From an uncultured Campylobacteraceae bacterium (lineage in GTDB: Bacteria; Campylobacterota; Campylobacteria; Campylobacterales; JALSKU01), in assembly GCA_964556545.1 (NCBI GenBank), contig CAZKWE010000059.1:24481-88480 (forward strand): DNA of 64,000 bases. The letters run 5' to 3'. The notes under the pieces are model-generated. The model did not search any database. It saw nothing but the letters and a program-made list of their open reading frames with translations, and was not told the origin of the DNA. The position numbers and the translations under genes were made by a program. This document shows positions 36,431 through 55,903 of the stretch, piece by piece. Positions within the stretch are counted from its first letter, which is position 1; each line of letters begins with the position of its first letter.

Positions 36431-37438
36431 ATGTTTCTTAAAAGAGTAATTTTTTATATTTTTTTTATATTTTTTGCACTTTTTTTTATAAACGGATGTG
36501 CAAAAACACAAGAGCAAAGAGAGTTAAAAACAGTTGAAAATAATGTAACCATAAGAATCGAAGGAGCAGTATATCCTATAAAAAAACAAGATGTTATATC
36601 ATCTGTTTCCGGTTATATAAAAGATATATATATCAAAAATGGAGATAGAGTTAAAAAAGGAGATAGGATTTACTCTCTTGATAAAGAGTTAATAAGGCTT
36701 GATATAGAAAACAAAAAGATGGAAATTTCCTCTTTAGAGCAAATAAGAGATCATATATATTCAAGAAAAAAAGGTGGAGACGGAAATGTACCTGCAATAA
36801 ATCTTTCAGCAATGCAACTTAAAAAAATCTCTTATTTAAGATCAAAAGGATATGCCGGTGATTTTGAAGAGGATAAATATAAGAAAAATTATATAAATGC
36901 ACTATATAACAACAATAAAAATAACAATACGGACAATTATGAAAAATTAAAAAATTTAAATAAGCAGATTCAAACTGCAAAAATAGATCTTAAAAAGTTA
37001 GAATTCAAATTAAAACATGCTGATGCTTATTCGGAAATTAACGGTTTTGTTACAGGTTTAGATATAAATAAAAGAGAGATGATCGGTGCAAATCAAAAAA
37101 TATGCTCTATTGTTGATATTGATAAAGTTTTGGTTAAAGCGGGTTTTTCAACAGGATTATTGCCATTTATATATTCCGGGAAAAAGATAAATATTTCTTT
37201 CGTTACGACTCCTCCTTATAGCACCGTCTCTAAAATAACTCAGGTAAATCCTATTGTAAATCCTAAATTTGAAAGAATGACTATAGAGGCGATTGTGCCT
37301 AACCATAACTATATACTCCAATCAGGTACAAGGGCTTTGGTAACGATACCATTGTCAAAAAAAGGTCAAAAAGAGGTCAAAAAATACTTTTTAAATAACA
37401 AAAGAGATATAACATTGGAAATTAAATCCAAAATCTAA
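36431..37438 (+). CDS. HlyD/membrane-fusion-protein-like lipoprotein
   Basis: 335 aa. Lipobox-like FINGC, biotinyl-lipoyl-like hairpin (GYIKDIYIKNGDRVKKGDRIYSLD), a coiled-coil stretch, and a second lipoyl half (INGFVTGLDI). Confidence 0.5.
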   Translation: MFLKRVIFYIFFIFFALFFINGCAKTQEQRELKTVENNVTIRIEGAVYPIKKQDVISSVSGYIKDIYIKNGDRVKKGDRIYSLDKELIRLDIENKKMEISSLEQIRDHIYSRKKGGDGNVPAINLSAMQLKKISYLRSKGYAGDFEEDKYKKNYINALYNNNKNNNTDNYEKLKNLNKQIQTAKIDLKKLEFKLKHADAYSEINGFVTGLDINKREMIGANQKICSIVDIDKVLVKAGFSTGLLPFIYSGKKINISFVTTPPYSTVSKITQVNPIVNPKFERMTIEAIVPNHNYILQSGTRALVTIPLSKKGQKEVKKYFLNNKRDITLEIKSKI

Positions 37439-38850
37439 TCTTTTTCATATAAAAATACTCTTCCTGTCGGTAGTTTTTTTTGAGTAAAAGTATCTTTTTC
37501 GTATGATATTTTAATGGTAACGGAGTGTTTGCCACTTTTTATCCAATTGTCATCGTATGGATTGTAGATAAATTTATTGTTCGGTATAAAATCAGATGTA
37601 ATTTTGATATATTTATTTTTATTGTAAGCTTCACTTGCAACAACAAAACCATTTGTATAAAATCTTATATATATATCATACGGGTTTATTTTTATATATT
37701 TTTTTCCTAATACACTACCTAAATCATAAAAATATACACTATCTTTTTCCAACTCTTTATTTTTAGAAATTTGTGCATAAACTATATTGTTTGTAAGTTT
37801 TGCCATAGCATATCCAAAATATATTGCATTTTTTGGTTTTTTAAGTCTATAGATAGGCATAGTGCTATAAACTCTTTCATACTTAGGTGCAATATAATTT
37901 AAATATATAAAATTCTTAAAGCCATATTTCTTATATTTGTTTTTATATGATGTAAGTATATCTATAAAATGCAAAGAATCTTTTATGGATTTGGAATTTT
38001 TGTATATCGGATAGTAATCGGTAGTATCGACAAGATGAATCCATCCCTTGCCTACAATTTGTATATCCATTTTTTTTGTACGGTTGGTGGTGATATAGCT
38101 TTCAGTCATATCATAGATTATATTTTTAAGCAGATACTTTTCTTGCCTAAAAGCTTGATTGGTTACAAAAAATATTTTTTCTTTTTTTAGTTTCTTATAA
38201 AATTTTGCAATTTGTATAAAATAGTTTTTTTTCTTATGTTTTTTTTCAAAATTATTTTTCATTATTTTAAAATTTTTATTATTTATAAAACTACCGGATG
38301 CCCAATCAAAAAAGAGTCCGTTAAATCCGCTTCTTTTTAAATTTTTCATTAAGTTTTCGACTCTTTTGTCTATAAGCAATTCGTTGCCATAATCATAGTA
38401 ATAATCTTTGCACCAGTTATAATGATTTTTTTTACAATGAACGAAAGGACCGTTCGGATTTAGTGTCAGATGAAATCTATCCGTGTATAACCACTTTACA
38501 AAATCTCTATTTTCTCCATTTGTGTAATAATATGTCGCTGGCATCCAGTCATATCCGATGTGATATTTGATATTTAATATTCCTCTTTTTTTTAAAAGTT
38601 CTTTTGTTATTTTAAAATCATCAACTCCTCCCATTTCTACCATTTGAAAATTTTTTGCCCATTTTATATCTTTTTTTTCACTTAAAGCCGGTATGAGTGT
38701 ATAGTCACCTTTTTTGATAGCTATTTTACCATTGTGTATAATAGTGTTGTATGATGATTCTTTTGTTATTTTAAAATTATATTTTTGTGCAAACAATAGA
38801 GTAGCCGTAAAGTATAAAATAAAAAAAATAGTAGTTTTAACTCTTTTCAT
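37435..38850 (-). CDS. Secreted protein, candidate GH114-like / PelA-hydrolase-like TIM-barrel glycosidase
   Basis: 471 aa with a signal peptide. The segment order ...KKRGILNIKYHIGY...VENLMKNLKRSGFNGLFFDW...IFFVTNQA... parallels the GH114/GHL pattern (..icYis.G.., ..kGfDGvflD.., ..v..KN). Resemblance by eye only. Confidence 0.4.
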   Translation of the reverse strand: MKRVKTTIFFILYFTATLLFAQKYNFKITKESSYNTIIHNGKIAIKKGDYTLIPALSEKKDIKWAKNFQMVEMGGVDDFKITKELLKKRGILNIKYHIGYDWMPATYYYTNGENRDFVKWLYTDRFHLTLNPNGPFVHCKKNHYNWCKDYYYDYGNELLIDKRVENLMKNLKRSGFNGLFFDWASGSFINNKNFKIMKNNFEKKHKKKNYFIQIAKFYKKLKKEKIFFVTNQAFRQEKYLLKNIIYDMTESYITTNRTKKMDIQIVGKGWIHLVDTTDYYPIYKNSKSIKDSLHFIDILTSYKNKYKKYGFKNFIYLNYIAPKYERVYSTMPIYRLKKPKNAIYFGYAMAKLTNNIVYAQISKNKELEKDSVYFYDLGSVLGKKYIKINPYDIYIRFYTNGFVVASEAYNKNKYIKITSDFIPNNKFIYNPYDDNWIKSGKHSVTIKISYEKDTFTQKKLPTGRVFLYEKD

Positions 38851-41905: not shown

Positions 41906-42110
41906 ATTGTGTATCGTTATTGCTATTTTGTAAAATTGGCATTTTATTCCTTTAAAGCCATTTTGTACTTTTATAGGTTTTTAATATGATATATTATACC
42001 TATTTTTCTTTAAAATCCAATTTGTGTTATAAGTTTTTAAACAATATAAGTAAATAATTATTTATCTAATGGTATCATAATGATTAAATAAAAAAGTAAA
42101 AAGATATTGT

Positions 42111-42689
42111 ATGTCGAAAAAAGAGTATAGAAAAGGTGAAAAAGTATTTGATTTTGTCTATCCGCTGATTTTTATAATATATCTATTTTTAAAAATTTTA
42201 CCGGATTTTTTCAGTAAATTTTTATGGGCAATTTTTAGAGAAATACCGGGATATTTAGGTATTGGATTGAGATATATCGTGTTAAAAAGATTATGCAAAG
42301 AGTGCGGTAAAAATATCGCTATCTTTCCCTCATCCTATTTTAAAATAGGTAAAAACTTAAAGATGGGAAGTCACATATCCATAAGAGAACATACATATAT
42401 TGATGGCGACAATCTTGAGATCGGAGATAATGTTATGATTTCTCATGGATCTTCCGTGATAACCGGATCTCATGTGTATAACAGGAAGATACCTATGAGG
42501 GACACACTTGAAGATAGACCCGTCAAGATAGGAAGCAATGTTTGGATTGGTGCAGGAGCAAGAATTATAGGGGAAACAAGTATTGGAAATGATGTTATTA
42601 TAGGTGCCAATAGTGTTGTAACGAAGCCTATTCCATCAAATGTTGTTGCAGTAGGAGTACCTGCTAAAATCATAAAAATACTCAAATAA
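42111..42689 (+). CDS. Hexapeptide-repeat (LbH) acetyltransferase with N-terminal membrane anchor
   Basis: 192 aa. Left-handed beta-helix repeats (IGDNVMISHGSSVITG..., IGSNVWIGAGARIIGETSIGNDVIIGANSVV) as in WcaF/WbbJ-type sugar O-acetyltransferases. Confidence 0.8.
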   Translation: MSKKEYRKGEKVFDFVYPLIFIIYLFLKILPDFFSKFLWAIFREIPGYLGIGLRYIVLKRLCKECGKNIAIFPSSYFKIGKNLKMGSHISIREHTYIDGDNLEIGDNVMISHGSSVITGSHVYNRKIPMRDTLEDRPVKIGSNVWIGAGARIIGETSIGNDVIIGANSVVTKPIPSNVVAVGVPAKIIKILK

Positions 42690-42724
42690 AATTTATTGTA
42701 TAGCATACAAAATAAAGGTCGATA

Positions 42725-43606
42725 ATGCAAAATAACCAAAGAGTTTATAGTAAAGATTTTGTAGAAAAATTTAAAAAGGCACTTGTTAAAACTTATCATT
42801 ATAAAGAGTATATGGATTTTTTAATTGTCCCTTCGCTGACTTTTTCAAAAATTTTATCATATATACCGGCATTGAGCTATACGGATAGAACAAGTGATGA
42901 TATTGATGACTTGATTGAGCTATCACATGGAAATAACTATCAAATTAAAACTTTAAATTTTAAATATAATGACTTCAAAGATAATGATCCGGTTACTATG
43001 AGGTTGAGTCTTAACAAAGAGATGGATCTGTTAAATTGCTATAAAAGTAGAACGAGAAATTATGTGAGAAAGTCTCTCAAAAACTCTTTTGAATTGAGAG
43101 AAAATATAGAAAATTTAGATGATTTTTATATCATCTTAAGAAAAACTTACAAAAAGCATGGTGCTCCTTTGATTTCAAAAAAATTATTTTTAAATCTTTT
43201 TTTTTATTTTCGTGAGGATTTGCATCTATTTACATTATATAAAGATAATCAAATTGCCGCCGCTATGTTTATACTAAAAGATAAAGAGCTTTCTTGGTAT
43301 GGTTGGGGTGGTGTAGATGAAAAATATGCTAAAGAGCGGGCCGGATACTGTATATATCATCTTGCGATAGAAAATATGCTTTTAAATCATAATATAAAAA
43401 TTTTTGATTTTGGAAGATCTCCTTACAATGGAGGTACATATAGATTTAAATCACATTTTGGAGCAAAACCTGTAAAGATAGATATATTTGAACCTATAGA
43501 AAAAGATATATATTCGACTTATAGCAGAGCCACAACATTATATAAAAAATTACCTTTTTGGATTTCAGATAGGATAGGTCCTGTTATCAGGAAGCATTTT
43601 CCTTAG
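42725..43606 (+). CDS. FemAB/CelD-like GNAT-fold acyl(aminoacyl)transferase, copy 2
   Basis: 293 aa, clearly paralogous to 40005-40928 (YKEYMDFLIVPSL.., ..LSWYGWGGVDEKYAKERAGYCIYH.., IKIFDFGRSPYNGGTYRFKSHFGAKP). Confidence 0.6.
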   Translation: MQNNQRVYSKDFVEKFKKALVKTYHYKEYMDFLIVPSLTFSKILSYIPALSYTDRTSDDIDDLIELSHGNNYQIKTLNFKYNDFKDNDPVTMRLSLNKEMDLLNCYKSRTRNYVRKSLKNSFELRENIENLDDFYIILRKTYKKHGAPLISKKLFLNLFFYFREDLHLFTLYKDNQIAAAMFILKDKELSWYGWGGVDEKYAKERAGYCIYHLAIENMLLNHNIKIFDFGRSPYNGGTYRFKSHFGAKPVKIDIFEPIEKDIYSTYSRATTLYKKLPFWISDRIGPVIRKHFP

Positions 43607-44480
43607 ATTTGTATTTGAGTGATAAAATTTTATAAAATATATGAAAAACTAAAATAAATAAAATAGTAAAACCTGTGTTATCCAAAAAAGACAATAAAAA
43701 AGCACTTTCTTTGTAAATACCGATTTTTGTTAGATAATATATAAAAACTCCTTCTCTGACTCCAATGCCGGATATTGATATTGGTATGATTGCTATCAAA
43801 GCACCCATTATTGAAACGGCACTAAGATAAAAAAAGTTTACCTCTATATTTAAAGATAGAGCCAAACAGTAATATTGTAGAAAATATGTTATATATGTTA
43901 TAAAATTTATTAAAAACAGTATGAAATCGGTTTTTATATCCACTTTTTTAAACTCATCTATCTTAAATCTTTTAAAAACATTAAGAAGTAATCTATTTCT
44001 AAAAACATATAGCAGTACTATAAAAACTATAAATACTATAAAATATAAATTAATAGGCAATTTAAGTATAAAGACAAAAGAAATTATACCAAGAAGTGCC
44101 ATAAAGTATAGATCTTGAAATCTATCATATATATAGGTTATGGTTCCTATCTTTTTGGAAACTCCGGATTTATCATATAAAAAAAGTATCTTGACGGAAT
44201 CCCCAATTCTTGAAGGTGTAACAAAGCCAAGATATTGTGATTCGATAGTTGCTCCAAAAACTTCAAAAAAGGGCGGATGTTCTCCATAATGATTTAAAAT
44301 ATACTTAAATCTTGCAACTTTCAATAATAAAAATATCGTATAAGAAGCTATGTAGAGTACAATATATTTTAGATCAATCGATTTTAATATTTCAAATAAT
44401 TTACCATATTTTAGAGTGGATAAAATATAAATAAGTACTATAATTCCTAAAATTCTTATATAAAAGAGTAATTTCTTCAT
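43587..44480 (-). CDS. UPF0104 / LPG_synthase_TM (MprF-flippase-like) membrane protein, copy 2
   Basis: 297 aa polytopic protein. ...GFVTPSRIGDSVKILFL...IYDRFQDLYFM... corresponds to the P-x-R-x-G-[ED] motif of copy 1. Last gene of the long minus-strand operon. Confidence 0.65.
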   Translation of the reverse strand: MKKLLFYIRILGIIVLIYILSTLKYGKLFEILKSIDLKYIVLYIASYTIFLLLKVARFKYILNHYGEHPPFFEVFGATIESQYLGFVTPSRIGDSVKILFLYDKSGVSKKIGTITYIYDRFQDLYFMALLGIISFVFILKLPINLYFIVFIVFIVLLYVFRNRLLLNVFKRFKIDEFKKVDIKTDFILFLINFITYITYFLQYYCLALSLNIEVNFFYLSAVSIMGALIAIIPISISGIGVREGVFIYYLTKIGIYKESAFLLSFLDNTGFTILFILVFHIFYKILSLKYKSKENAS

Positions 44481-45226
44481 AATTTGTTATTTTTAATTAA
44501 AAATTCGATTGAATTTGAATTTTGTATTATATTGCTAAGAGTTGAATACATATTTCCAAATCTGCTAAGATAAAATATTAAAACATAAAGTGCTATTTTA
44601 TTTTTATTGTAAAGTTTAAATACTTCTTTTATCGATAGAAAATCAAAAGGGTGAGCATATATGATATGTGGCGGTTTGCCTGTTAATTTTTGACCAAATA
44701 GATTTATCCATTTGATGCCTGAAGGAAACCTATCTCTTATAGTCGAAATAGATATATAGATAAGTTTTTTTGAATTTGCATATTGCATTGGAGCATATCT
44801 ATGTTTCATTTTGGATTGAGTTGTGCTTGCATCATATAAAAAATCAAGCTTTTCTAAAATATCATCTGTGTATTTACTTCTTTTAAATCCCGGAGTTCTA
44901 TATCCCAATACTTTCTTTTGTATTATATCTTCGAGTAATTTTTTTGAAGTATCTATTTGATAAAAAAGCTCATCTTCTGTTTTAATATCATAATCCAATG
45001 TATGATTGTGACCATGGGTGGCTATTTCGTGACCTTCTTTTTGAATCATTTGTATGTATTTTTTTGAGCGAGGTAGAGTTTCCGTAGATATAAAAAAAGT
45101 GCCTTTCGCTTTATATTTATCGAAAATTTCTAAAATCTTTTCAGTTGTATGTGTTATGGCATAATCACTCTTTAGTCTGCTTCCCCAATCATACTCAAAA
45201 TCGATTGTAATGCTCTTAGCAATCAC
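44477..45226 (-). CDS. CE4 (NodB-type) polysaccharide deacetylase, full length
   Basis: 249 aa. ITIDFEYDWG (D-x-E/D metal motif), ATHGHNH (His-His motif), and GYRTPGF. The N-terminus resembles the DVEDY-type deacetylase subfamily found in EPS loci. Confidence 0.75.
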   Translation of the reverse strand: MIAKSITIDFEYDWGSRLKSDYAITHTTEKILEIFDKYKAKGTFFISTETLPRSKKYIQMIQKEGHEIATHGHNHTLDYDIKTEDELFYQIDTSKKLLEDIIQKKVLGYRTPGFKRSKYTDDILEKLDFLYDASTTQSKMKHRYAPMQYANSKKLIYISISTIRDRFPSGIKWINLFGQKLTGKPPHIIYAHPFDFLSIKEVFKLYNKNKIALYVLIFYLSRFGNMYSTLSNIIQNSNSIEFLIKNNKL

Positions 45227-46091
45227 GATTTATAATCTCCATTCTTATGTTGTTTATCTGTTCGGCAAGAAGTGAAAATACAAACATTATGATAGCATTT
45301 GAATATAAAAAAATTGTTGTACTTGTTAAATTGACATAATAAAGATCATGTAAAAAAGAGAATGTTCCTAAAATTGCAAATACAAAGCTCAATGGAAGAA
45401 CTACTCTTAGTGGCTTAAACACCATACCGAGTTCCAATATCTTCAATATCGTTCTAAAACCGGTTTTAAAACTTACTTGACTTGCACCTCCGGCTCTTTT
45501 TTGTACATCTATGGGAATATAAATTAGATCATATTTGTTGGAAATATATGCTATGGTTATGGATGTCGTAAAGCTAAATCTTTCGGAACAGAGGTGCAAA
45601 TATTTACTTGCAGTTTTTTTGCTAAAAACTCTAAAACCTGAGTTAATATCCGGAATATCCTCTTTAAAGATAAAATTTGCTATTTTATGCAATAAAATTT
45701 TACCAAGAATTCTACTGGCTTTTGTTTGATATATTTTTCTTTCACCTATTACCATAGTTCCAAATCCGTCATATGCTTCAAGAAGCTTAGGTATGTCTTC
45801 CGGTTTATGTTGTCCGTCAGAATCCATTATAACTATCGTGTCATATTTTGCATTTTTTATACCTGTTTTCAATGCCCCACCATATCCTCTGTTTTTTTTA
45901 TGATGAATTACTCTTATGCCTTTAAAATTATTTAATATATTTCCGCTATTGTCTGTAGATTTGTCATCTATACAAATAATCTCATAATTGTACTTTTTGG
46001 AACTTAAATAGTTTTGCAATCTTTTTAAAGCTTCCTCTATACTATCTTCTTCATTGTAAACAGGGATAACTATTGAAAAGTTATTATGCAT
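45216..46091 (-). CDS. Family 2 glycosyltransferase with C-terminal TM helices (polyprenyl-phosphate sugar synthase type: ArnC/GtrB/DPM1-like)
   Basis: 291 aa. SIVIPVYNEE, CIDDKSTDNS, RGYGGALKTG, and MDSDGQH (DxD), plus two C-terminal hydrophobic helices. Confidence 0.85.
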   Translation of the reverse strand: MHNNFSIVIPVYNEEDSIEEALKRLQNYLSSKKYNYEIICIDDKSTDNSGNILNNFKGIRVIHHKKNRGYGGALKTGIKNAKYDTIVIMDSDGQHKPEDIPKLLEAYDGFGTMVIGERKIYQTKASRILGKILLHKIANFIFKEDIPDINSGFRVFSKKTASKYLHLCSERFSFTTSITIAYISNKYDLIYIPIDVQKRAGGASQVSFKTGFRTILKILELGMVFKPLRVVLPLSFVFAILGTFSFLHDLYYVNLTSTTIFLYSNAIIMFVFSLLAEQINNIRMEIINRDC

Positions 46092-47592
46092 GTTGCTCTC
46101 CTGTGGTAGCTTTTAATTTTTCAATTTTATTTTTGATGGATTTTTCAGTATCTAAAAAAACATTTACAATGACATCATTAAACATTTTATTTCTCGATTT
46201 TTCTATCTCTTTGATTGCTTCCTCATGTGTTCTTCCTTTTTTGTATGATCTGTCACTTGTAATTCCGGCATAAAATTCTCCAACCGATACAACTTGTGCC
46301 TCTATTGGGATTTGAGACTCTTTCAATCCAAAAGGATAGCCTTTTCCGTCAAATCTTTCATGGTGATATTTTATGATATCCGAGATCGGATAAATATGTG
46401 CGATAGGTTCAGTCATAATGCTCCCGACAAGAGGATGTTCTTTGATGAGATCCATCTCTTTTTCGCCAAATTGTTTGCTATTTAATGCGACAAGCAAATC
46501 CCCGATCATGCCTATATCATGTAAATATGCTCCAAGAGATATCGTATCGATCTCCTCTTCAGACAAAAAGAGTGATTTTGCAATTTCGACAGATACTATC
46601 TGAACTATTTTTGAGTGATTTTTATAATATTTATTTTCTAATTCAATAGCTTCATTTGTAAATTTCAATAAATCAATATAATTCCTTACCATTTCACTAT
46701 CTTTATCTATATTTTCCAAAAAAGCACCGGACATATCTAAAAATGATCCTATTTGAGTTATTGTATCATTTTTCAATGGTTTGTCACTAAAAAATTCAAG
46801 TTTATACGGAGTATTTCTTATATAAAAAATTTTCTGTTTTTGAGCTGATTTATCCGATAACTGTTCAAATATCAATTCATCATTTTTTGTTAATAATCTT
46901 GCTCCTTTGGCTTTTGTGAGTTTAACTATCAATGCTATAAAAAATTTGAAAAATTGATATTTATCCATTTGAAGCTTTATAAGAGATATGGAGGTTTCCT
47001 TACTGACATTTGATAGTGCTTGTGATCCTTTTGATTTTAGATTGAATATTAAATTTTCATAGTATCCGAGAATAATGCCGTAAAACCCTTCATATCTATC
47101 TCTTTTTATCTCTTTTCTTGCAAATAGAATGAGTAGAAATTTTTTATCATAGCTATTGAAAAAAGATATATTGTAATTTCCGCTTTTTGTAAAGTTTGAT
47201 ATATTTTTTTTTCCGATTCTCAATGGGGCGGCAAGAGCTTTTTCGTTTATGGTGTCTGATTCGATTAGTACATATGTTTCTCCTCTTAATTCATAAATGG
47301 CACCATAGTTTGCTTTTACCAATTTACAACTTTTAAGTAAAAAGTTTTCCACATCTTTTATATCTTTTTTACCGCTAAGATTTTTATAGTATTCATCAAA
47401 ATATTTTAATTCAAGTTTAAGTTGAAAATTTTTTCTAAAAATATTCATATTGATTATTATCAACAGAATTAAAAAAATAAAAAAAATCCACCAGTATTGA
47501 CCTAAAAAGTTGTTAAGTTGATCTAAATTTGAAAATATGATATTTGGCAAAATATAATTAAAATAATATCTGCTTTGTTCGAATATGTTCAT
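46084..47592 (-). CDS. TM + GAF-like + HD-GYP domain protein (c-di-GMP phosphodiesterase/receptor type)
   Basis: 502 aa. One N-terminal TM, GAF-like stretches (ANYGAIYELRGETYVLIES), and a C-terminal HD-GYP with intact HDIGM ... HHERFDGKGYPFG. Confidence 0.85.
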   Translation of the reverse strand: MNIFEQSRYYFNYILPNIIFSNLDQLNNFLGQYWWIFFIFLILLIIINMNIFRKNFQLKLELKYFDEYYKNLSGKKDIKDVENFLLKSCKLVKANYGAIYELRGETYVLIESDTINEKALAAPLRIGKKNISNFTKSGNYNISFFNSYDKKFLLILFARKEIKRDRYEGFYGIILGYYENLIFNLKSKGSQALSNVSKETSISLIKLQMDKYQFFKFFIALIVKLTKAKGARLLTKNDELIFEQLSDKSAQKQKIFYIRNTPYKLEFFSDKPLKNDTITQIGSFLDMSGAFLENIDKDSEMVRNYIDLLKFTNEAIELENKYYKNHSKIVQIVSVEIAKSLFLSEEEIDTISLGAYLHDIGMIGDLLVALNSKQFGEKEMDLIKEHPLVGSIMTEPIAHIYPISDIIKYHHERFDGKGYPFGLKESQIPIEAQVVSVGEFYAGITSDRSYKKGRTHEEAIKEIEKSRNKMFNDVIVNVFLDTEKSIKNKIEKLKATTGEQHA

Positions 47593-49302
47593 TTTTCAAC
47601 CTTTTTTTTCTTTTTATTTTTCTAATTTTTTCTACATATTTGCTGTTGTCTATCTCGTAAACACTAATGGTTTCTGTCTTATAGTATACCCATTATGTTT
47701 TCTTTTGTCAAATAACTATTAGCGTAAACAGTAATGGTTTCTGTCTTATAGTATACCCTAATATTGCTGTGATTTGCACTATATAAGGCTATCCAACTTT
47801 TTAAATCGTTTTGTATATTACCCCTCTATCTATAATACCACTCATCTTTGCCTTTATATGGATTTGGAAAATTTTCCACAAAAATATATATTTTAGATGC
47901 ATCTGTCTTTAACTCTTTGTCTTGAGGATTGTATTTTAAGAGAAAGCTTTGAGTGTTTATATGATATCCTTTGTTTCTTACTTTCGCATACTCTTGTACA
48001 TAAGATATAACAGTCCAAGTAAAGGGTCTATTATCTTTATTTATTTTTAAAATAATATTGGGAATTGCGGTATATTCAATAGAGTTTAAATTTTTCCAAA
48101 AATATTTCGTATCCATCCATCTTAGAATCAATAAAACCATAAAAATAAAAATGGTATATGTTATAAATAAAATAGCTAATCTTGCATATTTTTTAAACAA
48201 AAGAAAAATAGGTTTATATATAAAGTAAAAAAAATAAAAAGCAAAAAGAAGGGTAATGCCAAAAAATAGATATTCTGCAAGTCTGCTTTGATTGGCGAGC
48301 AATGACATACCGGCATTTGGTCCAAAATATGAGATAAAAATCCCTACGATTATAAGCATGTATGAGGTATTGATAAATCTTCTTTTTGTAAAAAGTGAGA
48401 AGATAAAAGCTATTATAATCATAGAAAAAAGAATTAGGTGAATTTTATTGATTGTTGCTATCGTAATGGCTTGAAATCCCAATTTTACAATATGTTGCAT
48501 ATTTACTTTCGTATTAAATAATTTATCTAAAAGCCGGAATAATCTTTTATGACATAATATATTGAAAGATATAGTGCTATCAATAGCAAAATAGGATAAA
48601 GACTAAATGAAATTATAGGATCAATATTGGTAAAAGTTGTTACAAAAAAATCCATAATCGCCTGACCGTAAAAGTCGGCACTAATCCTTAAATCCGCATA
48701 TAAAATATTATTTTGAAGATTGTTTACCCATTCTATAAATTGTGATGTATCCGGGATCGGATTGCCATAGCTTGAGAGTCCTCTTGCCATTAGAACGGAT
48801 ATGATATAAAAAAATATGGAAAAAAAAGTATATTTTGTAAAGCATTGTAAAAGGTGATGGATTTTATATAATTTATCAATCTATTTTCAAGATATTCAAT
48901 TTTAGATTTCTTAACCTCTTTTGTTCTATCCATCAGTATAAAAAGTTTATTCATAATGGAGTTTTTTAAATCGTCAAAAATCGGTAAAATATCTTTGTGA
49001 TAATAAAATTTTAAAAATAGTAATTTTGTAAAAATTAATGAAAAAATAAATAGCAATATGCTAAAAGCTTTTATAAATATCAAAAAAGTGACTACAATTT
49101 CGATATATGAAACCATATAGATAAAGTTGATAACTATCTTTTCAATTCCTTTACCTGTATATTTTTGAGGAAATATCTTGATAGGAACCCAGTAAAAAAA
49201 TAGATAAGCCACTATAAGTAATTTAAATAAATACCATAAATTTTTTAAAAATATTTGATAAATTATATCAATATCGATAAAGTATATATTTTGTGACATC
49301 AT
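47593..49302 (-). pseudogene. Decayed tandem paralog of the 727-aa membrane protein gene
   Basis: Track ORFs 48790-49302, 48527-48790 and 47826-48500 align by eye with residues about 1-170, 175-265 and 455-685 of the 49330-51513 product. Lesions are a frameshift at the A7 run 48808-48814, loss of about 190 central codons, and TAG (47826-47828) where the intact copy has Trp (YYRW). The C-terminal remnant also carries a duplicated segment. Confidence 0.8.
47656..47758. repeat. Two 36-nt direct repeats (35/36 identical) spaced 67 nt, inside the pseudogene 3' remnant
   Basis: CGTAAACACTAATGGTTTCTGTCTTATAGTATACCC (47656-47691) and CGTAAACAGTAATGGTTTCTGTCTTATAGTATACCC (47723-47758). Both encode the ...VYYKTETI(T/S)VY... 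segment on the minus strand. Confidence 0.85.
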
Positions 49303-49329: not shown

Positions 49330-51513
49330 TTATTTTTTTTCATTTTTCATTTTTTCTTTTAAATAGTTCAAATAATCATTGTTGTTGATTTCGTAAACGG
49401 TAACTGTTTTTGTTTTATAATATATTGATATATTTTTATGTGTTTGATTGTATATGGCAATCCAACTTTTTAGACTATTTTGTATATCTCCTCTCCATCT
49501 ATAATACCATTCATTCATTCCTTTGTAGGGATTTGGAAAATTCTCTATAAAAATAAAAACTTTAGAAGTGGGAACTCTAAGATATTTATCTTTCGGGTTA
49601 TATTTAAGAAGAAAGTTTTGTGTATTGATATGGTAACCTATATTTTTGACTTTTGCATACTCTTGTATATATGAAATAACTGTCCAAGTAAAAGGTCTAT
49701 TTTGTTGATTTATCTTCAAAATAATATCCGGGATGGAGGTATATTCGATCTCGTTTAAATTTTTCCAAAACAAATTTGAATTTAGCCATTTGGGCATAGT
49801 TAAAGATAATATTGTAAAAAGTATAAAGCTTATTATCAACATTATAATCTTAGTATATTTTTTTAGTAACATTGATATAGGTTTGTAAAAAAAATAACTG
49901 TAATAAAAAGAAAACAGAAGTGTAATGCCAAACAATAGATATTCTGCAAGCCTGCTTTGTTTTGTTAAAAGAGGAAAACCTAAATTTGTTCCAAAATATG
50001 TAATAAATATAGCAATGACAATCATAATATATGAACTATTTAAAAATCTTTTCTTGGTAAAAAAAGAGAAAATAAAAGCAAATGCCAATAGTGCAAATAA
50101 CATAATATGAAAATTATTTATCTGAGATATTGAGATAAATTCTATATTCGGTGTTGTAATGGTATCGGTATTGTTTCTTGTTTTAAGAAGTTTATCTATA
50201 ATAGGTGCAGCCGCACCTATTCGTTGTGGAACTCCATATCTAATCATAGATAACAACCACATATTTCCTACAATGGAAGCTAAGAAAATTCCTAACAATC
50301 CTTTTTTAAGTAAATGTAAATTTAATTTACCAAAGATAATAGCATTTATGGTTACTAAAATACTCATAATAACCAATATAATCGCTCCACCTCCATGAAA
50401 AGTAAAAACAAGCATAAGTGTCAATGAATAAAGAAGCAAATATCTGTCTAAATGTGTTTGAAATATTTTGATAAGAAAATAGATATTTAAAAATACGAAA
50501 ATCGAAGCATGCTCATATGCCATACCGCTTATATATCTCATATATGGGATATATCCATTTAAAAAACCACTATGTTGCAAACTATATGTTGTAGGGATAT
50601 AAAAGTTTAATCCGTACCAATGCACAAGCATAGGGTTGGATGTTGTAACAATTTTTCCAAGTATGTCATTTGCCAGAGGAGTCATAAGCACCAATCCATG
50701 TATTATTACGGCAAATAGTGCAACATATTTTGAATCGCTAAAATCTTTTATGATATAGTAAATAGTGAAATATAATGCTATAAGAAGTAATACCGGATAT
50801 AGACTAAAAAGAATGATTTGATTGATATTTGTAAAAAGATTGATAAAAAATATCATTATAGACATACCGTAAAAATCAGCACCAAATGTTTTATTTATCG
50901 GGTAAAGCATATTTTTTTGTAAAAAATCCACCCATTCTATAAATTGAGAGGTATCGGAAACAGGATCGCTATAGCTATATATTCCTCTTGCGATAAGAAT
51001 GGAAATAATATAAAAAAATACTACAAAAAAGAGTATTTTTTGTGATAGTGTATATAATGTTAAAGATCTTTGTAACTCTAAACTTTTTCTTTTTATAAAA
51101 CTCCAAAATTTATTTTTGAGTTCTTTTGGATTGTCAAGTATATCTAAAGAGTAAAGCATTATGCTGATTCTTATGCGATTTAACAATAAAATCGTATCTT
51201 TTTTATAGTACCATTGTAAAAAAGCAAGTTTTGTAAGAATAATTATAAATATAAATAAAAGTATAGAAAAAATTTTAATAAAAATTAAAAAAGGTACAAT
51301 TATTTCAACATAGGCAACCATATATATAAAATTATAAATGATTTTTTGCATTCCCTCTCCGGTATATTCTTGAGGAAAAATTTTAGTCGGTAGCCAATAA
51401 AATAAAGTATATGCTACGATTAATATTTTAGATGTATACCAGATATTTTTAGCAAATATTTGATATATGATATTTAAATCTATAAAATAAAAATCGTAAG
51501 CATGTGAAAACAT
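49330..51513 (-). CDS. Large polytopic membrane protein of unknown family with C-terminal soluble domain (candidate GT-C-like/YfhO-like transferase)
   Basis: 727 aa with more than 12 hydrophobic segments and a C-terminal non-membrane region of about 120 aa (...NRPFTWTVISYIQEYAKV...ENFPNPYKGMNEWYYRWRGD...). I recognise no diagnostic motif. The coding call is strong, the function is speculative. Confidence 0.5.
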   Translation of the reverse strand: MFSHAYDFYFIDLNIIYQIFAKNIWYTSKILIVAYTLFYWLPTKIFPQEYTGEGMQKIIYNFIYMVAYVEIIVPFLIFIKIFSILLFIFIIILTKLAFLQWYYKKDTILLLNRIRISIMLYSLDILDNPKELKNKFWSFIKRKSLELQRSLTLYTLSQKILFFVVFFYIISILIARGIYSYSDPVSDTSQFIEWVDFLQKNMLYPINKTFGADFYGMSIMIFFINLFTNINQIILFSLYPVLLLIALYFTIYYIIKDFSDSKYVALFAVIIHGLVLMTPLANDILGKIVTTSNPMLVHWYGLNFYIPTTYSLQHSGFLNGYIPYMRYISGMAYEHASIFVFLNIYFLIKIFQTHLDRYLLLYSLTLMLVFTFHGGGAIILVIMSILVTINAIIFGKLNLHLLKKGLLGIFLASIVGNMWLLSMIRYGVPQRIGAAAPIIDKLLKTRNNTDTITTPNIEFISISQINNFHIMLFALLAFAFIFSFFTKKRFLNSSYIMIVIAIFITYFGTNLGFPLLTKQSRLAEYLLFGITLLFSFYYSYFFYKPISMLLKKYTKIIMLIISFILFTILSLTMPKWLNSNLFWKNLNEIEYTSIPDIILKINQQNRPFTWTVISYIQEYAKVKNIGYHINTQNFLLKYNPKDKYLRVPTSKVFIFIENFPNPYKGMNEWYYRWRGDIQNSLKSWIAIYNQTHKNISIYYKTKTVTVYEINNNDYLNYLKEKMKNEKK

Positions 51514-51518
51514 AAAAA

Positions 51519-52826
51519 TTATTTCCTAATAATTACAAAATCAACTCGTCTATTTAATGCTCTTCCTTTGTCTGTTTTATTGGTTGCTATCGGTTTATCT
51601 TCTCCATAGCCTATAGTCATAATTCTTAATGGATAGATACCCATTTTTACCAATTCTTTTTTAACGGAATCGGCTCTGTTTTTTGATAGTTTTTGGTTAT
51701 ATTTTCTCGAAGCAATACTATCGGTATTGCCTTCAATTCGTATTTTATAGCTTGGATGCTCTTTTAAATATTTTGCGATCGGTTTTAAAAGTTTTATACT
51801 CTCAGGTGTCAGTTGATAAGAGTTATATGCAAAGTGAAGATTGTGAAGACTGAGTGTCAAGCCATTATCAAATCTATCTTTTACGGTTTGGTATTTGTTG
51901 TTTGTATCAAGATACATTCTATTTAGTAGAAAAAATATCAATTTCCATCTTAAAAGTTCACCATCATACATAGTGTCTTGAAATTCAAACGGTCTTAAAA
52001 ATACAACTCCACCCTTTCCGTATCTTACAAAAGATACCAGCGGTTTTCCGCTTTTTGATTTTAAAAGATATGTTCCATCTGGTATAAAATCCACACTCAT
52101 AAAATTTTTAGTGATAATTTGTAAATTTTTTATATCTTTAAAATATTCGATATCACTTTTTGTTTTATATTTTAATTTCAAAGGTTTATAATTTATAAAA
52201 TCAAGTTTTTTACTTTTGTATATATAGGTTTTTACCTTTCTATCAAAAAATTTCAAATTTCTACTTTTTCTTATCATTTTAGAATTTATAGCTTTTTCGT
52301 CGATTTCCCCACTCTTTTTAAAAGTATCGTATCTTGTTGAATATATACCGCCCTCTATCCATAAAATACCCCCTTCTCCTATCCACCATTTCAGAATCTC
52401 TTGCTCTTTTGTCGAAAGATTATATGTATATCCGATATCTTCAAACAAATCATCGGATACTCTTTTAAACTCATTTACCCAAGTAGGTAAAACATATATA
52501 AAATCTTCAGCAAACGGATTTGTTCTAAGTTTCCAAAAATCCACATCTTTTATATTGTCATATTTATATCTATAATCTATCTTGTTATAAAATTGATTTG
52601 AAAATTTTCCCCTAAAGTCAATAATTGGTCTATATGAGATAAACGGAAACCCTTTCAATAATTTTCTACCATTGTTGATATCCGGCCAAATATTATCAAC
52701 TGATACATCGTATATCTCCACTTGCTCCGGGGTCAATACCTTTTTTTCAAATACTCTATCGCTTTTTGTAGCACATCCGCTCAAAAGAAGAAGAGCTAAA
52801 GAAAAACCAAATATATATTTTTTCAT
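51519..52826 (-). CDS. Lipoprotein with C-terminal OmpA-like peptidoglycan-binding domain
   Basis: 435 aa. Lipobox LLSGC. C-terminal OmpA_C motifs (IRIEGNTDSIASRKYNQKLSKNRADSV...NRRVDFVI). The N-terminal domain of about 300 aa is unassigned. Confidence 0.75.
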   Translation of the reverse strand: MKKYIFGFSLALLLLSGCATKSDRVFEKKVLTPEQVEIYDVSVDNIWPDINNGRKLLKGFPFISYRPIIDFRGKFSNQFYNKIDYRYKYDNIKDVDFWKLRTNPFAEDFIYVLPTWVNEFKRVSDDLFEDIGYTYNLSTKEQEILKWWIGEGGILWIEGGIYSTRYDTFKKSGEIDEKAINSKMIRKSRNLKFFDRKVKTYIYKSKKLDFINYKPLKLKYKTKSDIEYFKDIKNLQIITKNFMSVDFIPDGTYLLKSKSGKPLVSFVRYGKGGVVFLRPFEFQDTMYDGELLRWKLIFFLLNRMYLDTNNKYQTVKDRFDNGLTLSLHNLHFAYNSYQLTPESIKLLKPIAKYLKEHPSYKIRIEGNTDSIASRKYNQKLSKNRADSVKKELVKMGIYPLRIMTIGYGEDKPIATNKTDKGRALNRRVDFVIIRK

Positions 52827-52838
52827 TGAAAATCCTTT

Positions 52839-54419
52839 CTAAAATGATGAATAGTAATAAAAATCTAATTTTTTAAGCATATTTACAGTATATCTGAAAC
52901 TAAGTACCCAAAATAGTATGCTTCCGACAAAAAGGCCGAAAACTGCATACTCAAGTCCAAACATTCTGCTTAAAATCATACCTATTGTTATATTTACAAA
53001 TGTAGCAATAAGTATAGCTTTAACCGAAAAGTTTTGTCTGGAAAAAGAAAATATAAATAAAACATTCATTAGTCCATTTATCATAAAAGCATAAGAGATT
53101 GCTCCAACCCAATAAACAAATGGAGTATAACTTGTAAAAAAGTTTTGTATATAAGTAAAATTAAAAAATTTATACATAAAAAATACTGTAAAATAAACTA
53201 CGAATATAATAACAACAGAGAGTATGAGATATATTAAATTAAATTTTTTAAAAAAAGCATATATTGAATTATTAAATTTTTGATAATCTCTATATTTGTA
53301 CTGTAATATGGTATCATTTATCCTGTACATAAATTCATGTATGCTAATTTCCGTTAAACCCATAAGTAAAACTAATGTCACAAGAGCCCAATCCAAACCG
53401 AGTTCATAAGGAACATCAAACCAAATAAAATATGGTTTTGCCACTACATTGCTACTCCAAGCTACGATTCTATCGGTTAATAAAAAAATAAAATATAAAA
53501 AGCCATACATATAAAAAGGTATCAAAGAGTAAAAAAGTATAGAAGCTCTTGGTGTTCCTTCACCTTCGGAAGATATATTTTTCTTTTTTAAATTTCTAAT
53601 TTTTATATATGCGAAAATTGAAATGATTATATTCAAAATAACCAAAGCTGCAAATTGTGCTTCCGGTAGTTTTATCTTTAAAATACTGTGTGTTATATAG
53701 ACAAAGACAATACCTATGAGAAAAAAATATAATATTTTAGTGTACTCCTCAAACATATAGTATATAGAAATGTTTAAAAATAAAAAAGATAACAAAAAAT
53801 AAAACATTATTATAATAAAGAAGTAATATGGTGGTAAAATTTCAAAGAAAAAATTTAAAACTATGAGGATAAATCCTATGGATAAAACAAAGACTATTCC
53901 GGTATTAAATAAAACTTTTGTAACATTCGATGCCAGTATCATTTCTTCTTGCTTAAGGTAAAAAAGACCTTTTCTGCCTATAGCTTGAGCAGATGCTCCT
54001 GTAACTATCAAGGCAAGAAAAGTGCCAAGAGCAATAACGGTAGCTTTTGTCTTATCCATATTTATTCCCGACCAAATTGCATAACCTATGGAAAGGGTGA
54101 AAAATATTTGGACAAACATAGGCATTGCAAAAGCCAAACCCCTTATATAATTTTTAAAGATTCTTATTGCAAAAGAGGGCAATTCTTCCCATTTGACAAG
54201 GGATTTGGAGGGGTAAGTTTTAAAATCCACATATTTTTGCATATATTTTGCCATTTCAAAAACATTATCAAAATTATAATCTTTTTTTGCATCTATATCT
54301 CTGATGCCGTATATTTCAAGTAGTGCCGCAATCTCCCAATGATCAAGCGGCTTTCCTTTGTCTTTTGTTATTTTGTCATAAAGAATGCTTAAATCTTGAC
54401 CATCTCTGCTTGTTGCCAT
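52839..54419 (-). CDS. Polytopic membrane protein, PelG-like candidate (polysaccharide exporter position)
   Basis: 526 aa, about 12 TM segments after a 90-aa cytoplasmic N-terminus. It lies immediately downstream of and overlapping the PelF-like gene, as pelG does in pel operons. The ...TDRIVAWSS...YELGLDWALVTLVLLMGLTEISIHEFMYR... region loosely resembles PelG. Similarity not verified. Confidence 0.4.
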   Translation of the reverse strand: MATSRDGQDLSILYDKITKDKGKPLDHWEIAALLEIYGIRDIDAKKDYNFDNVFEMAKYMQKYVDFKTYPSKSLVKWEELPSFAIRIFKNYIRGLAFAMPMFVQIFFTLSIGYAIWSGINMDKTKATVIALGTFLALIVTGASAQAIGRKGLFYLKQEEMILASNVTKVLFNTGIVFVLSIGFILIVLNFFFEILPPYYFFIIIMFYFLLSFLFLNISIYYMFEEYTKILYFFLIGIVFVYITHSILKIKLPEAQFAALVILNIIISIFAYIKIRNLKKKNISSEGEGTPRASILFYSLIPFYMYGFLYFIFLLTDRIVAWSSNVVAKPYFIWFDVPYELGLDWALVTLVLLMGLTEISIHEFMYRINDTILQYKYRDYQKFNNSIYAFFKKFNLIYLILSVVIIFVVYFTVFFMYKFFNFTYIQNFFTSYTPFVYWVGAISYAFMINGLMNVLFIFSFSRQNFSVKAILIATFVNITIGMILSRMFGLEYAVFGLFVGSILFWVLSFRYTVNMLKKLDFYYYSSF

Positions 54420-55903
54420 TCTTTTTCCTCTGCTTGTAAATATTCGGTATATAGATTTTTATATACATTATGATAATTATCTACCATATCTTCAATAGTA
54501 AAACCATTCAATACGAATTCTCTTGCTTCCGCACCCATCTCTTTTGCAATTTTTGGATTTTTTAAAACATATATAACTTTATCGGCAAATGCTTGATAAT
54601 CTTTAGGTTTTATTACATATCCGAAATTTTCCAATACTTCTTTGGTGCCTCCAACATCTGAAGAAACAACAACTTTTTCACAGGCCATAGCCTCTATAAC
54701 AACAAAAGGAAATGCTTCGGATATACTGGTAAGCATAACAACATCTCCACTATTGTATGCAGTTTCCGGACTATTTGTAAGACCGGCAAATTCAAAATTG
54801 TTTTGCAAATTCAATTTATCGACCAACTCAGCACAAGTGTTATAATACTTTCTGTCTATAATCGGACCGTAAAGCCTAAACAAAACATTAGGTATCTCTT
54901 TTGCAACAAGTTGGGCAGTTTTTATAAAAGTTTCTATATCTTTTAACGGATCAATTCTTGCAACCATAACTACCGTCGGTCTATCAGATTTTTCAACATC
55001 AATTTTTTTGAATTTACTGGTGTCTATTCCATTGTATATCGTATGTATTTTAGATTTTTTTACACCCCATTTTTTTTCCCATCTTGAATTGTAGTTGCAA
55101 ACAGGTGATACGATATCGGCAAAATGAAAATTTAGTTTTGATACGAGTGTAATAAGTCCCATCATAAATTCTTTTGTTCTATAAGGCATAAGATTTCTTG
55201 AAGCCGCGAGATATTGTTCTCTTATATATACACCATGTTCAGTCAATAAAAATTTACTTTTATATTTTTTCTTAGCAATGATACAAGATAATCCACAAAA
55301 AGCCGCAGCAGATGAATGATATATGTGAGCTTTTGGCAGATCCGGCAAAAGGGCTATAAAAAATCTATACAGATATCTTAATCCCTCCACCATATCAAAT
55401 ACCGTAGGTATATCTTCTTCTATGTCTTTGTAATGTTCAAGTATATATTCTCTATATATATTCCATAGTTCTTCATCTCTAAATGTTTCATAATAGTCAT
55501 ATTTATGAAAATATTCGTAAAAATCATATATTGCATCGCCAAGAAGATCAAGATCTTCTTTTTTTCTAAAGATGTGATCAAGAATCAAAATCATTATCGG
55601 TTTTATTTTTTCGATTGATTTTGTGGTTTGTGTTCTTATTTTGGCTTCGTAAATTCTTGCAAAATCCACCTGTCTTATATACTCAATAGGCTCTTCCGTT
55701 CCCCAAAGGGGTACATTTATAATATTGGTTACATTAGGTGGTATTTCAAATTTGAGTTTTACATACGGATGCATTTGAATCGGAATAAGTGTAAAGTCTA
55801 TATTTTTTAGTTCATGTACTAAAATATCCGCCCAAGTGCTAACTCCTCCGGTAACATACGGATATGTTCCCTCTCCGGTCCATGCTACTTTAATTCTGCT
55901 CAT
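54389..55903 (-). CDS. PelF-like glycosyltransferase (DUF3492 N-terminal domain + GT4)
   Basis: 504 aa. The N-terminus VAWTGEGTYPYVTGGVSTWADIL matches the PelF/DUF3492 hallmark (EGTWPYVRGGVSSW in P. aeruginosa PelF, from memory). C-terminal GT4 EX7E motif EAFPFVVIE. Confidence 0.8.
   Translation of the reverse strand: MSRIKVAWTGEGTYPYVTGGVSTWADILVHELKNIDFTLIPIQMHPYVKLKFEIPPNVTNIINVPLWGTEEPIEYIRQVDFARIYEAKIRTQTTKSIEKIKPIMILILDHIFRKKEDLDLLGDAIYDFYEYFHKYDYYETFRDEELWNIYREYILEHYKDIEEDIPTVFDMVEGLRYLYRFFIALLPDLPKAHIYHSSAAAFCGLSCIIAKKKYKSKFLLTEHGVYIREQYLAASRNLMPYRTKEFMMGLITLVSKLNFHFADIVSPVCNYNSRWEKKWGVKKSKIHTIYNGIDTSKFKKIDVEKSDRPTVVMVARIDPLKDIETFIKTAQLVAKEIPNVLFRLYGPIIDRKYYNTCAELVDKLNLQNNFEFAGLTNSPETAYNSGDVVMLTSISEAFPFVVIEAMACEKVVVSSDVGGTKEVLENFGYVIKPKDYQAFADKVIYVLKNPKIAKEMGAEAREFVLNGFTIEDMVDNYHNVYKNLYTEYLQAEEKEWQQAEMVKI

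Follow-up and report, generated by a model that had tools for sequence, protein, structure and literature searches.

An HD-GYP protein with retained core metal ligands and a replaced catalytic second shell as a candidate c-di-GMP receptor or trigger of a Pel-related glycan cluster in Campylobacterota

Introduction

How might a Pel-related glycan machine be placed under the control of cyclic diguanylate (c-di-GMP) when its gene cluster encodes no PelD? Pel-type polysaccharides are major components of biofilm matrices, and to our knowledge PelD is so far the only c-di-GMP reader of Pel systems. The question is raised by a 64,000-nucleotide stretch of DNA from an uncultured Campylobacteraceae bacterium (assembly GCA_964556545.1, contig CAZKWE010000059.1, positions 24,481 to 88,480; hereafter the window), in which a gene for a membrane-anchored HD-GYP protein lies within a PelF-containing cluster. 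A sequence-only reading had placed this protein in a PelD-analogous slot, either as a local c-di-GMP sink or as an HD-GYP domain repurposed as a receptor. The remodelled active site described below shifts the weight toward the receptor or trigger side. At a probability of roughly 0.5, we favor the reading that the protein is a cluster-dedicated c-di-GMP receptor or slow "trigger" hydrolase, which would take the role of PelD without being homologous to it.

The HD-GYP active site

The gene starts with ATG, and the following features were assigned to it and its product.

46084..47592, minus strand: HD-GYP gene, encoding a 502-amino-acid protein with a transmembrane (TM) segment, tandem GAF-like modules and an HD-GYP domain (open reading frame (ORF) list, Pfam HD_5 and HD, homologs, AlphaFold2)
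46093..46695, minus strand: HD-GYP domain, amino acids 300-500 (Pfam, PDB sequence alignments, residue table, Foldseek)
46711..46962, minus strand: GAF-like module 2, amino acids 211-294 (AlphaFold2, invariant columns)
47002..47361, minus strand: GAF-like module 1, amino acids 78-197 (AlphaFold2 secondary structure, Foldseek)
47434..47508, minus strand: single TM segment, about amino acids 29-53 (hydropathy scan, AlphaFold2 helix)
47509..47592, minus strand: N-terminal helix, amino acids 1-28, consensus FEQSRYYFN..LP (consensus of 70 homologs, AlphaFold2 helix 3-32)

The ORF, its single TM segment and its C-terminal HD-GYP domain had all been recognized by the sequence-only reading and were reproduced here by the ORF list, hydropathy, AlphaFold2, Pfam HD_5 and the positions of the HDIGM (amino acids 358-362) and HHERFDGKGYP (410-420) motifs. 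Pfam HD_5 (PF13487) covers amino acids 313-469 (E = 5.7e-25; 88.5 bits against a cut-off of 27.2) and is matched in all 70 relatives. The best solved relative by sequence is PmGH (PDB 4mcw, E = 9e-22), followed by PA4781, DvhD and V-cGAP3. We aligned 70 family members with PmGH and 34 generic HD-GYP proteins taken from control loci, and took the residue roles from the PmGH paper (PMC4159591) and from Galperin & Chou.

In PmGH numbering, H189, H221, D222, H250, H276, H277, E278, D281, G284, Y285, P286 and R314 are invariant (70/70), and the K317 position is K or R throughout the family. The window protein keeps H326, H358, D359, H386, H410, H411, E412, D415, G418-Y419-P420 and R448. Its G416, in the HHExxDGxGYP motif, is G in 67 members and A in 3; the other HD and HHExxDGxGYP residues are invariant. 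Five positions are changed relative to PmGH: D183 to N320, E185 to Y322, K225 to M362, D305 to E439 and D308 to A442. The family (n = 70) and the generic proteins (n = 34) compare as follows.

K225: M in 68 of the family; K in 31 of the generic proteins
D305, a metal ligand: E in 70/70; D in 34/34
D308: A, V, I or T; D in 30/34
D183: N, S, T or M, with Asp in 0/70; D in 31/34
KPG motif, the second-guanine contact: lost; K in 34, with P and G in 16 each

The HD had been called intact. This is correct for the HD dyad and for six metal ligands, whereas K225, D305, D308 and usually D183 are replaced, and the Met of HDIGM is itself the K225 position. Scoring the metal-binding residues against characterized enzymes, as had been proposed, gave the same division: six of the seven shared ligands (H189, H221, D222, H250, H276, H277 and D305) are identical to those of PmGH, while D305 is Glu in every member. 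A Glu at this position could still bind metal. The position of the third-metal ligand, E185, is Y or F in the family, which therefore falls in the binuclear Y/F subgroup.

In PmGH, the D183A, K225A and D308A mutants lost activity as fully as the metal-ligand mutants, and D305A and E185A left some activity (PMC4159591). Of these three residues, D183 and D308 are replaced across the 70 Campylobacterota members, and K225 has become Met in 68 of them. Five members from outside the phylum share the signature, with M at 225, E at 305 and a hydrophobic residue or Thr at 308 in 5/5. Because the ligand-site residues are invariant, the metal and nucleotide site appears to be under strong selection, unlike that of DvhD, in which HD and HH are lost, and the catalytic second shell appears to have been systematically re-tuned. 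Judged by its residues, the family would be neither a canonical enzyme nor a degenerate receptor of the DvhD type.

Among the 34 generic HD-GYP proteins (control loci L048-L082), three have Met at the K225 position. The remaining counts in this set (two S and one N at D183; two R and one K at H189) are compatible with the same three proteins carrying all these changes, which would suggest independent degenerate HD-GYP lineages.

Conserved gene neighborhood

The HD-GYP gene lies in an array of minus-strand genes, listed here from its first gene onward, together with genes that recur in related clusters.

55890..57737, minus strand: TolC-like outer-membrane factor (OEP), first gene of the array (Pfam OEP)
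54389..55903, minus strand: PelF, DUF3492 plus GT4 glycosyltransferase (NCBIfam PelF equivalog; Pfam DUF3492, Glycos_transf_1)
52839..54419, minus strand: PelG-like polytopic membrane protein (Pfam PelG, the sole match)
51519..52826, minus strand: X, a lipoprotein with an N-terminal domain without known family and a C-terminal OmpA-like peptidoglycan-binding domain (Pfam OmpA; lipobox LSGC)
49330..51513, minus strand: Y, a 727-amino-acid polytopic protein, predicted GT-C-fold glycosyltransferase (AlphaFold2, Foldseek, synteny)
47633..49302, minus strand: Y', a decayed tandem paralog of Y in three frames (translations; tblastn of Y)
45216..46091, minus strand: GT2 with C-terminal TM helices (Pfam; NCBIfam AglJ, PgfS, ArnC-like, PpgS)
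44477..45226, minus strand: polysaccharide deacetylase, CE4-type, present in most related clusters (Pfam Polysacc_deac_1)
43587..44480, minus strand: LPG_synthase_TM-family membrane protein, recurrent in related clusters (PF03706)
42725..43606, plus strand: FemAB-like/Acetyltransf_6 protein, present in most related loci (Pfam)
37435..38850, minus strand: U471, a secreted 471-amino-acid protein and recurrent cluster member (signal-peptide-like N-terminus, no TM; synteny)

Synteny was analyzed in 76 loci from species-representative genomes and, in addition, in targeted contigs, in which homologs of the window genes were located by tblastn; the counts cover non-redundant family loci, and 33 loci of generic HD-GYP proteins served as controls. 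In all 34 loci with 600 nucleotides or more of upstream sequence, the gene directly upstream on the same strand is Y. All 24 loci with at least 7.5 kb have PelF, the PelG-like gene, X and Y upstream on that strand, and OEP is collinear as well in 23 of these. None of the array genes was found in the control loci, save for one weak GT2-like match.

The linkage is kept across phyla and across four gene orders. Thermodesulfovibrionales loci have the order X-Y-U471-HDGYP, with PelG, PelF and OEP divergent, and Nitratiruptor-type loci have a convergent GT2 block. The loci of the remotest Y homologs (including L083/L084) read GH114-OEP-PelF-PelG-X-Y-Fem-GT2-deacetylase-LPG_synthase_TM-345aa-HDGYP, with the HD-GYP gene distal. 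Thus, the HD-GYP protein is inherited together with the supra-cluster as a whole, as one of its components.

The HD-GYP stop and the start of the 291-amino-acid GT2 ORF overlap by 8 nucleotides (ATGCATAA), as the sequence-only reading had stated and the junction sequence shows. As a conserved, translationally coupled partner, the GT2 was rejected on counts. It is adjacent on the same strand in 17/36 loci, lies 2.6-3.4 kb away on the same strand in 7/36 and on the opposite strand in 9/36 (Nitratiruptor-type, convergent), and was undetected in 3/36. The overlap is a lineage feature, and the conserved neighbor is the upstream Y. By its best NCBIfam matches, the GT2 resembles a polyprenyl-phosphate sugar transferase rather than the exopolysaccharide (EPS) synthase.

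Between intact Y and the HD-GYP gene lies Y', which had appeared as three small membrane ORFs (170, 87 and 224 amino acids; 47826-49302) and an apparently intergenic stretch (47593-47825). By translations and tblastn, we rejected the small ORFs as additional cluster genes; they are fragments of a Y paralog that retain Y residues 18-167, 159-259 and 438-715 at 53-63% amino acid identity in frames -3, -2 and -1, and residues of about 260-437 are gone. Several relatives have two intact tandem Y paralogs on a single contig. In the ancestral arrangement the HD-GYP gene overlaps Y, and in the window that junction survives only against the pseudogene copy Y'.

Composition of the cluster

PelF exceeds the NCBIfam equivalog cut-off of 100 with 168.2 bits. 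The PelG-like protein is more distant; four orthologs match Pfam PelG over nearly their full length with 24.3, 20, 14.9 and 11.9 bits, below the gathering score of 29. OmpA-like matches to X are at amino acids 315-433 in NCBIfam and the PDB. Y has no sequence match in Pfam, NCBIfam or the PDB. Its AlphaFold model (pLDDT 88.9, pTM 0.90) retrieved STT3 (3.7e-6), PglB (5e-5), AftA (7.5e-3) and ArnT (1.6e-2) with Foldseek over 560-750 aligned columns, so that Y is predicted to have a GT-C membrane fold with a C-terminal periplasmic domain.

PelA, PelB, PelC, PelD and PelE were not detected in the window cluster, and neither PelE nor any TPR protein was found in it. By these matches, the cluster appears to be Pel-related through PelF and a distant PelG, rather than a canonical pel operon. 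It encodes no PelD, PelE, PilZ or GGDEF protein and no degenerate GGDEF/EAL receptor, and the HD-GYP protein is its sole c-di-GMP-type component. Outside the cluster, the window encodes a GGDEF-EAL protein, and the organism therefore makes or turns over c-di-GMP.

25888-27882, plus strand: GGDEF-EAL protein, 665 amino acids (Pfam GGDEF 172 bits, EAL 241 bits; GGDEF and EALIR motifs intact)

The N-terminal module and the protein family

The AlphaFold2 model of the HD-GYP protein was built on 70 homologs and has a mean pLDDT of 82.9. Hydropathy gives a single hydrophobic segment (amino acids 28-56), and in the model the TM segment is part of one continuous helix, 34-73, that extends as a stalk. 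By the positive-inside rule, we infer an N-out/C-in topology, which would place the N-terminal helix (amino acids 1-28) in the periplasm. The FEQSRYYFN..LP motif of this helix remains recognizable in the out-of-phylum members.

Both GAF-like modules are modeled as helix/beta-sheet/helix units connected by long helices. Module 2 has merely four strands and carries the most strongly conserved N-terminal motifs, QKxFYIRNT (K254, F256, I258 and N260 invariant; R259 and T261 at least 90%) and IGSFLD, both of which are also present in the Thermodesulfovibrionales members. Together with the putatively periplasmic N-terminal helix, these two motifs are candidate sites for contact with a ligand or a partner.

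Foldseek matched the tandem-GAF segments of PDE2A (1e-5), PDE5A GAF-A/B (5e-4) and 1mc0 (1e-3), as well as phytochrome GAF-PHY modules and PmGH over 453 columns, each with a probability of 1.00. No Pfam GAF match at E<=1 was obtained for the window protein or any of the 70 relatives, three of which have weak Pfam PHY matches, and a profile of the N-terminal region gave nothing in the PDB at E<=10. The GAF-like regions claimed from the letters thus appear real in the predicted fold, and are not detectable in the sequence. We rejected assignment to the GAF domain family and kept "GAF-like fold".

About 117 full-length homologs of about 500 amino acids are conserved end to end, down to 33% identity. 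The named members are Campylobacterota: Sulfurimonas, Nitratiruptor, Caminibacter and metagenome-assembled genomes (MAGs) of Arcobacteraceae/Helicobacteraceae. The closest relatives of the window protein (70-74% identity) come from hydrothermal "Campylobacteraceae/Campylobacterales" MAGs. Full-length members outside the phylum are encoded by two Thermodesulfovibrionales MAGs, one "Pacearchaeota" contig and two metagenomic clusters (29-30% identity).

The N-terminal 300 amino acids alone, searched against 1.84 billion representative proteins, gave only 16 matches, all of them proteins of about 500 amino acids with identical architecture or fragments of these. None of the 1.84 billion representatives joins this module to GGDEF or another output, and neither this search nor the PDB profile detected a relation to PelD or relatives outside the family. 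The TM and tandem GAF-like module would thus be private to the family. Since it is confined to one architecture, the HD-GYP protein is better regarded as a specialized part than as a generic sensor.

Taken over all loci, the sequences point to a family that spans phyla, is locked to its cluster and has a diagnostic signature in its active site. The PelF/PelG-based cluster without PelD and PelE is widespread in chemolithoautotrophic Campylobacterota of vents and sulfidic habitats, and the specialized HD-GYP protein is always present in it.

The contig binned as 'Candidatus Pacearchaeota archaeon' (L047, JAWCMS010000004.1) has a full bacterial PelF/PelG/X/Y/U471/HD-GYP cluster, and its locus is closely similar to those of the Thermodesulfovibrionales. 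The contig is probably bacterial and misbinned.

Comparison with known systems

The HD-GYP protein resembles PelD, the c-di-GMP receptor of the Pel system in P. aeruginosa and B. cereus, in its inner-membrane anchor, its GAF-type fold, its c-di-GMP-family domain and its encoding with PelF and PelG (here a PelG-like protein). As the sole c-di-GMP-type component of its cluster, it is likewise the likely point of post-translational control. PelD, however, has four N-terminal TM helices where the HD-GYP protein has one, and one GAF domain where the latter has two minimal GAF-like modules. PelD also ends in a degenerate GGDEF domain with an RxxD I-site, whereas here no GGDEF match was found and the C-terminal domain is HD-GYP. 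The PelD gene lies between those of PelC and PelE, and the HD-GYP gene follows the GT-C gene or closes the cluster. The window cluster further differs from canonical pel in lacking PelA, PelB, PelC and PelE and in having OEP, an OmpA-like lipoprotein, a GT-C protein, a CE4 deacetylase and a GT2. Homology to PelD was rejected on three grounds: no GGDEF, one TM, and an N-terminal module that is never fused to other outputs. What remains of the PelD-analogous slot is a dedicated, sole c-di-GMP-type member of a Pel-related cluster; there is no homologous slot and no detectable kinship with PelD. With both PelD and PelE missing, a functional analogy with the regulatory role of PelD is nevertheless reasonable.

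The GAF/HD-GYP phosphodiesterase PmGH from Persephonella marina (PDB 4MCW) is the best match in both sequence and fold (Foldseek 1.9e-16). The two proteins share the order GAF, long helix, HD-GYP, and have H189, H221, D222, H250, H276, H277, HHE, GYP, R314 and K317 in common. PmGH is soluble, with one GAF domain and a trinuclear site (E185), whereas the family is anchored in the membrane, carries a pair of GAF-like modules, has Y/F at 185, has replaced D183, K225, D305 and D308, and has lost KPG.

DvhD from Desulfovibrio vulgaris, a LapD-like c-di-GMP receptor (PDB 9RBZ/9RC0), is also a membrane protein with an HD-GYP domain that serves a dedicated surface-structure system, and its fold is a close match (Foldseek 2.5e-10). 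In DvhD, HD is changed to SQ and HH to MN, and c-di-GMP is bound without metal and is not hydrolyzed. It differs by having dCache and PAS domains and by controlling a protease/adhesin system, while the present family keeps the core metal ligands and is linked with a cluster for glycan synthesis. DvhD is a precedent for an HD-GYP domain as a c-di-GMP receptor.

In E. coli, PdeK/DgcC at the cellulose synthase and PdeR are local c-di-GMP source/sink modules and 'trigger' phosphodiesterases. The shared concept is that of a phosphodiesterase-type protein at, or specific for, one EPS machine, with binding and slow turnover as the signal. Unlike the family described here, they are EAL proteins with canonical catalytic residues, and they are not conserved members of a synthase operon across phyla. 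Both sink and receptor thus have conceptual precedents, the former in EAL-type local sinks and trigger phosphodiesterases and the latter in DvhD.

A systematic survey of pel operons and a companion paper contain no mention of pel loci with an HD-GYP gene or of the Campylobacterota, and searches of the full-text literature gave no account of the present arrangement, nor of any HD-GYP protein encoded inside a pel locus. A paper on a Zetaproteobacteria stalk cluster was set aside as not comparable.

Proposed mechanism and alternative explanations

We propose that the HD-GYP protein is held in the inner membrane by its TM helix, with the short conserved N-terminal helix outside, and serves a machine that would consist of PelF, the PelG-like protein, lipoprotein X, the GT-C transferase Y and the TolC-like channel, with a polyprenyl-phosphate sugar branch. 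As in PmGH, the protein would probably form dimers through the tandem GAF-like modules and the long linker helices. Its cytoplasmic HD-GYP domain would still bind metal and a cyclic dinucleotide, most likely c-di-GMP; because the residues that support fast hydrolysis are replaced, the domain would act as a receptor or slow 'trigger' hydrolase, and its nucleotide occupancy would be relayed to the membrane glycan-assembly complex. In this scheme, domain architecture, family membership, synteny and residue pattern were observed, and c-di-GMP as ligand, slowed catalysis, dimerization, a physical association with the machine and the direction in which it would be controlled are inferred.

Several points weigh against it. 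A pure receptor would need neither all six His/Asp ligands nor the change of D305 to Glu; an intact metal site suits an enzyme better, and DvhD binds c-di-GMP without metals. The mutational data come from one trinuclear enzyme, PmGH, and second-shell needs may differ in the binuclear Y/F subgroup. The replacements by Met, Glu and hydrophobic residues might be compensatory changes that leave the site active, the loss of KPG could mean another nucleotide, and two of the five out-of-phylum members keep D183. Gene adjacency, moreover, speaks for a functional link rather than for physical binding to PelF, PelG or Y.

The main, though less likely, alternative is an enzyme in the full sense: a competent binuclear c-di-GMP phosphodiesterase tethered at the glycan machine as an active local sink. 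Low local c-di-GMP would keep the machine off until an inhibitory signal reaches the GAF-like modules or the periplasmic helix, and a separate receptor would read the nucleotide. Core metal ligands, HHE, GYP and R314/K317 are retained throughout the family, the HD_5 match is well over threshold, the change of D305 to Glu is conservative for a ligand whose D305A mutant in PmGH was partly active, and the synteny is compatible with a local role. The Y/F subgroup includes the active enzymes PA4781 and VCA0681, and GAF-regulated HD-GYP phosphodiesterases such as Tlr0485 are known (Galperin & Chou). Nevertheless, K225, D308 and nearly always D183, each essential in PmGH, are replaced, and the KPG motif is lost. 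The cluster also encodes no candidate receptor (PelD, PilZ or degenerate GGDEF/EAL), which would leave such a machine without a sensor.

The lost KPG motif, as the holder of the second guanine, and the family-wide remodeling of the second shell also bear on an improbable alternative, in which the ligand or substrate is a different one: another dinucleotide such as cyclic GMP-AMP (cGAMP) or the linear guanosine dinucleotide pGpG, a phosphoester of the pathway (e.g., a polyprenyl-diphosphate-linked intermediate), or a redox or gas signal at a di-iron site. The chemistries of the HD superfamily are diverse, HD-GYP relatives specific for cGAMP exist (V-cGAP3, 5z7c), and the cluster is rich in enzymes of lipid-linked sugars (the GT2 resembling polyprenyl-phosphate transferases, and GT-C). 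However, the GYP loop, HHExxDG, R314 and K317, which are c-di-GMP contacts in PmGH, are retained, and the catalytic domain is modeled by AlphaFold2 as soluble and more than 200 residues from the membrane anchor. We know of no HD-GYP protein that acts on lipid substrates. Least of all do we expect a generic cellular phosphodiesterase with an incidental neighborhood. HD-GYP proteins are common as stand-alone signaling enzymes, and in the window a pseudogene separates the HD-GYP gene from the upstream genes and a sigma-70-like match lies about 90 nucleotides upstream of it. Against this stand the linkage across phyla and four gene orders (34/34 and 24/24 loci), the control loci without array genes save for one weak GT2-like match, an N-terminal module found nowhere else, and promoter-like matches that occur at chance level.

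If the HD-GYP protein is the sensor of its machine, as in the receptor or trigger reading, the repertoire of c-di-GMP effectors would grow by an HD-GYP domain that serves as receptor or trigger while its metal site is intact, and the family would offer a natural set of substitutions (K to M, D to E, D to A/V, D to N) for separating hydrolysis from sensing in HD-GYP domains. Only tentatively do we suggest that it is a third, independently evolved type of c-di-GMP control of an EPS or envelope-glycan machine, after PilZ and the I-site of the degenerate GGDEF in PelD. A metal-containing, re-tuned HD-GYP domain would be the built-in receptor or trigger and would replace PelD and PelE, and the machine would be a previously undescribed hybrid of PelF/PelG, GT-C and a polyprenyl-phosphate branch. 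Judging from the cluster, PelF/PelG modules may also be joined to lipid-linked-sugar chemistry of the GT-C type, which bears on the question of Pel polymerization and export.

Additional features of the window and related loci

The minus-strand array is tightly packed, with overlaps or gaps of at most 27 nucleotides, one pseudogene excepted. A promoter/terminator scan of the array region gave no terminator-like sites, and promoter-like matches were at chance level (75 against 67±8 expected). The best sigma-70-like match of the 9-kb region, TTGACA-17-TATACT at 47711..47683, is the one about 90 nucleotides upstream of the HD-GYP start. It overlaps a direct repeat of about 35 nucleotides, GGGTATACTATAAGACAGAAACCATTA[C/G]TGTTTACG, which is present in two copies at 47633-47760 on the minus strand and duplicates a remnant of the sequence coding for the Y C-terminus.

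Downstream of the array, a second set of cluster-type genes occupies window positions 37435-42800 on both strands. Besides U471, it includes the following.

38837-39748: second LPG_synthase_TM protein
40005-40928: second FemAB-like protein
41393-41905: GT2, 170 amino acids, truncated-looking, beside a 108-amino-acid ORF (40897-41223)
42111-42689: hexapeptide acyltransferase

U471 has no match in Pfam or NCBIfam; its GFNGLFFDW motif is reminiscent of TIM-barrel polysaccharide hydrolases. Just past the OEP end of the cluster lies a fragment of a transposase.

57930-58784, plus strand: DDE transposase fragment (DDE_Tnp_1_4, 284 amino acids, TTG start)

A lone Y paralog (L085, 6431-8605) is located beside a NIT-sensor hybrid histidine kinase/response-regulator pair and away from any PelF, PelG or HD-GYP gene; therefore, not all Y homologs belong to the cluster. 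In distant clusters, a gene of the GH114 (endo-alpha-1,4-polygalactosaminidase) family is present, and a Spherulin4-like gene lies just upstream in the Nitratiruptor locus (positions of these genes: L083 2516-3331, L084 2489-3289, L001 1002-1721). The GH114 and Spherulin4-like families are linked to polymers of N-acetylgalactosamine (GalNAc) and galactosamine (GalN), such as Pel and fungal galactosaminogalactan (GAG). By analogy, these genes hint at a GalNAc-type polymer as the product of the related clusters.

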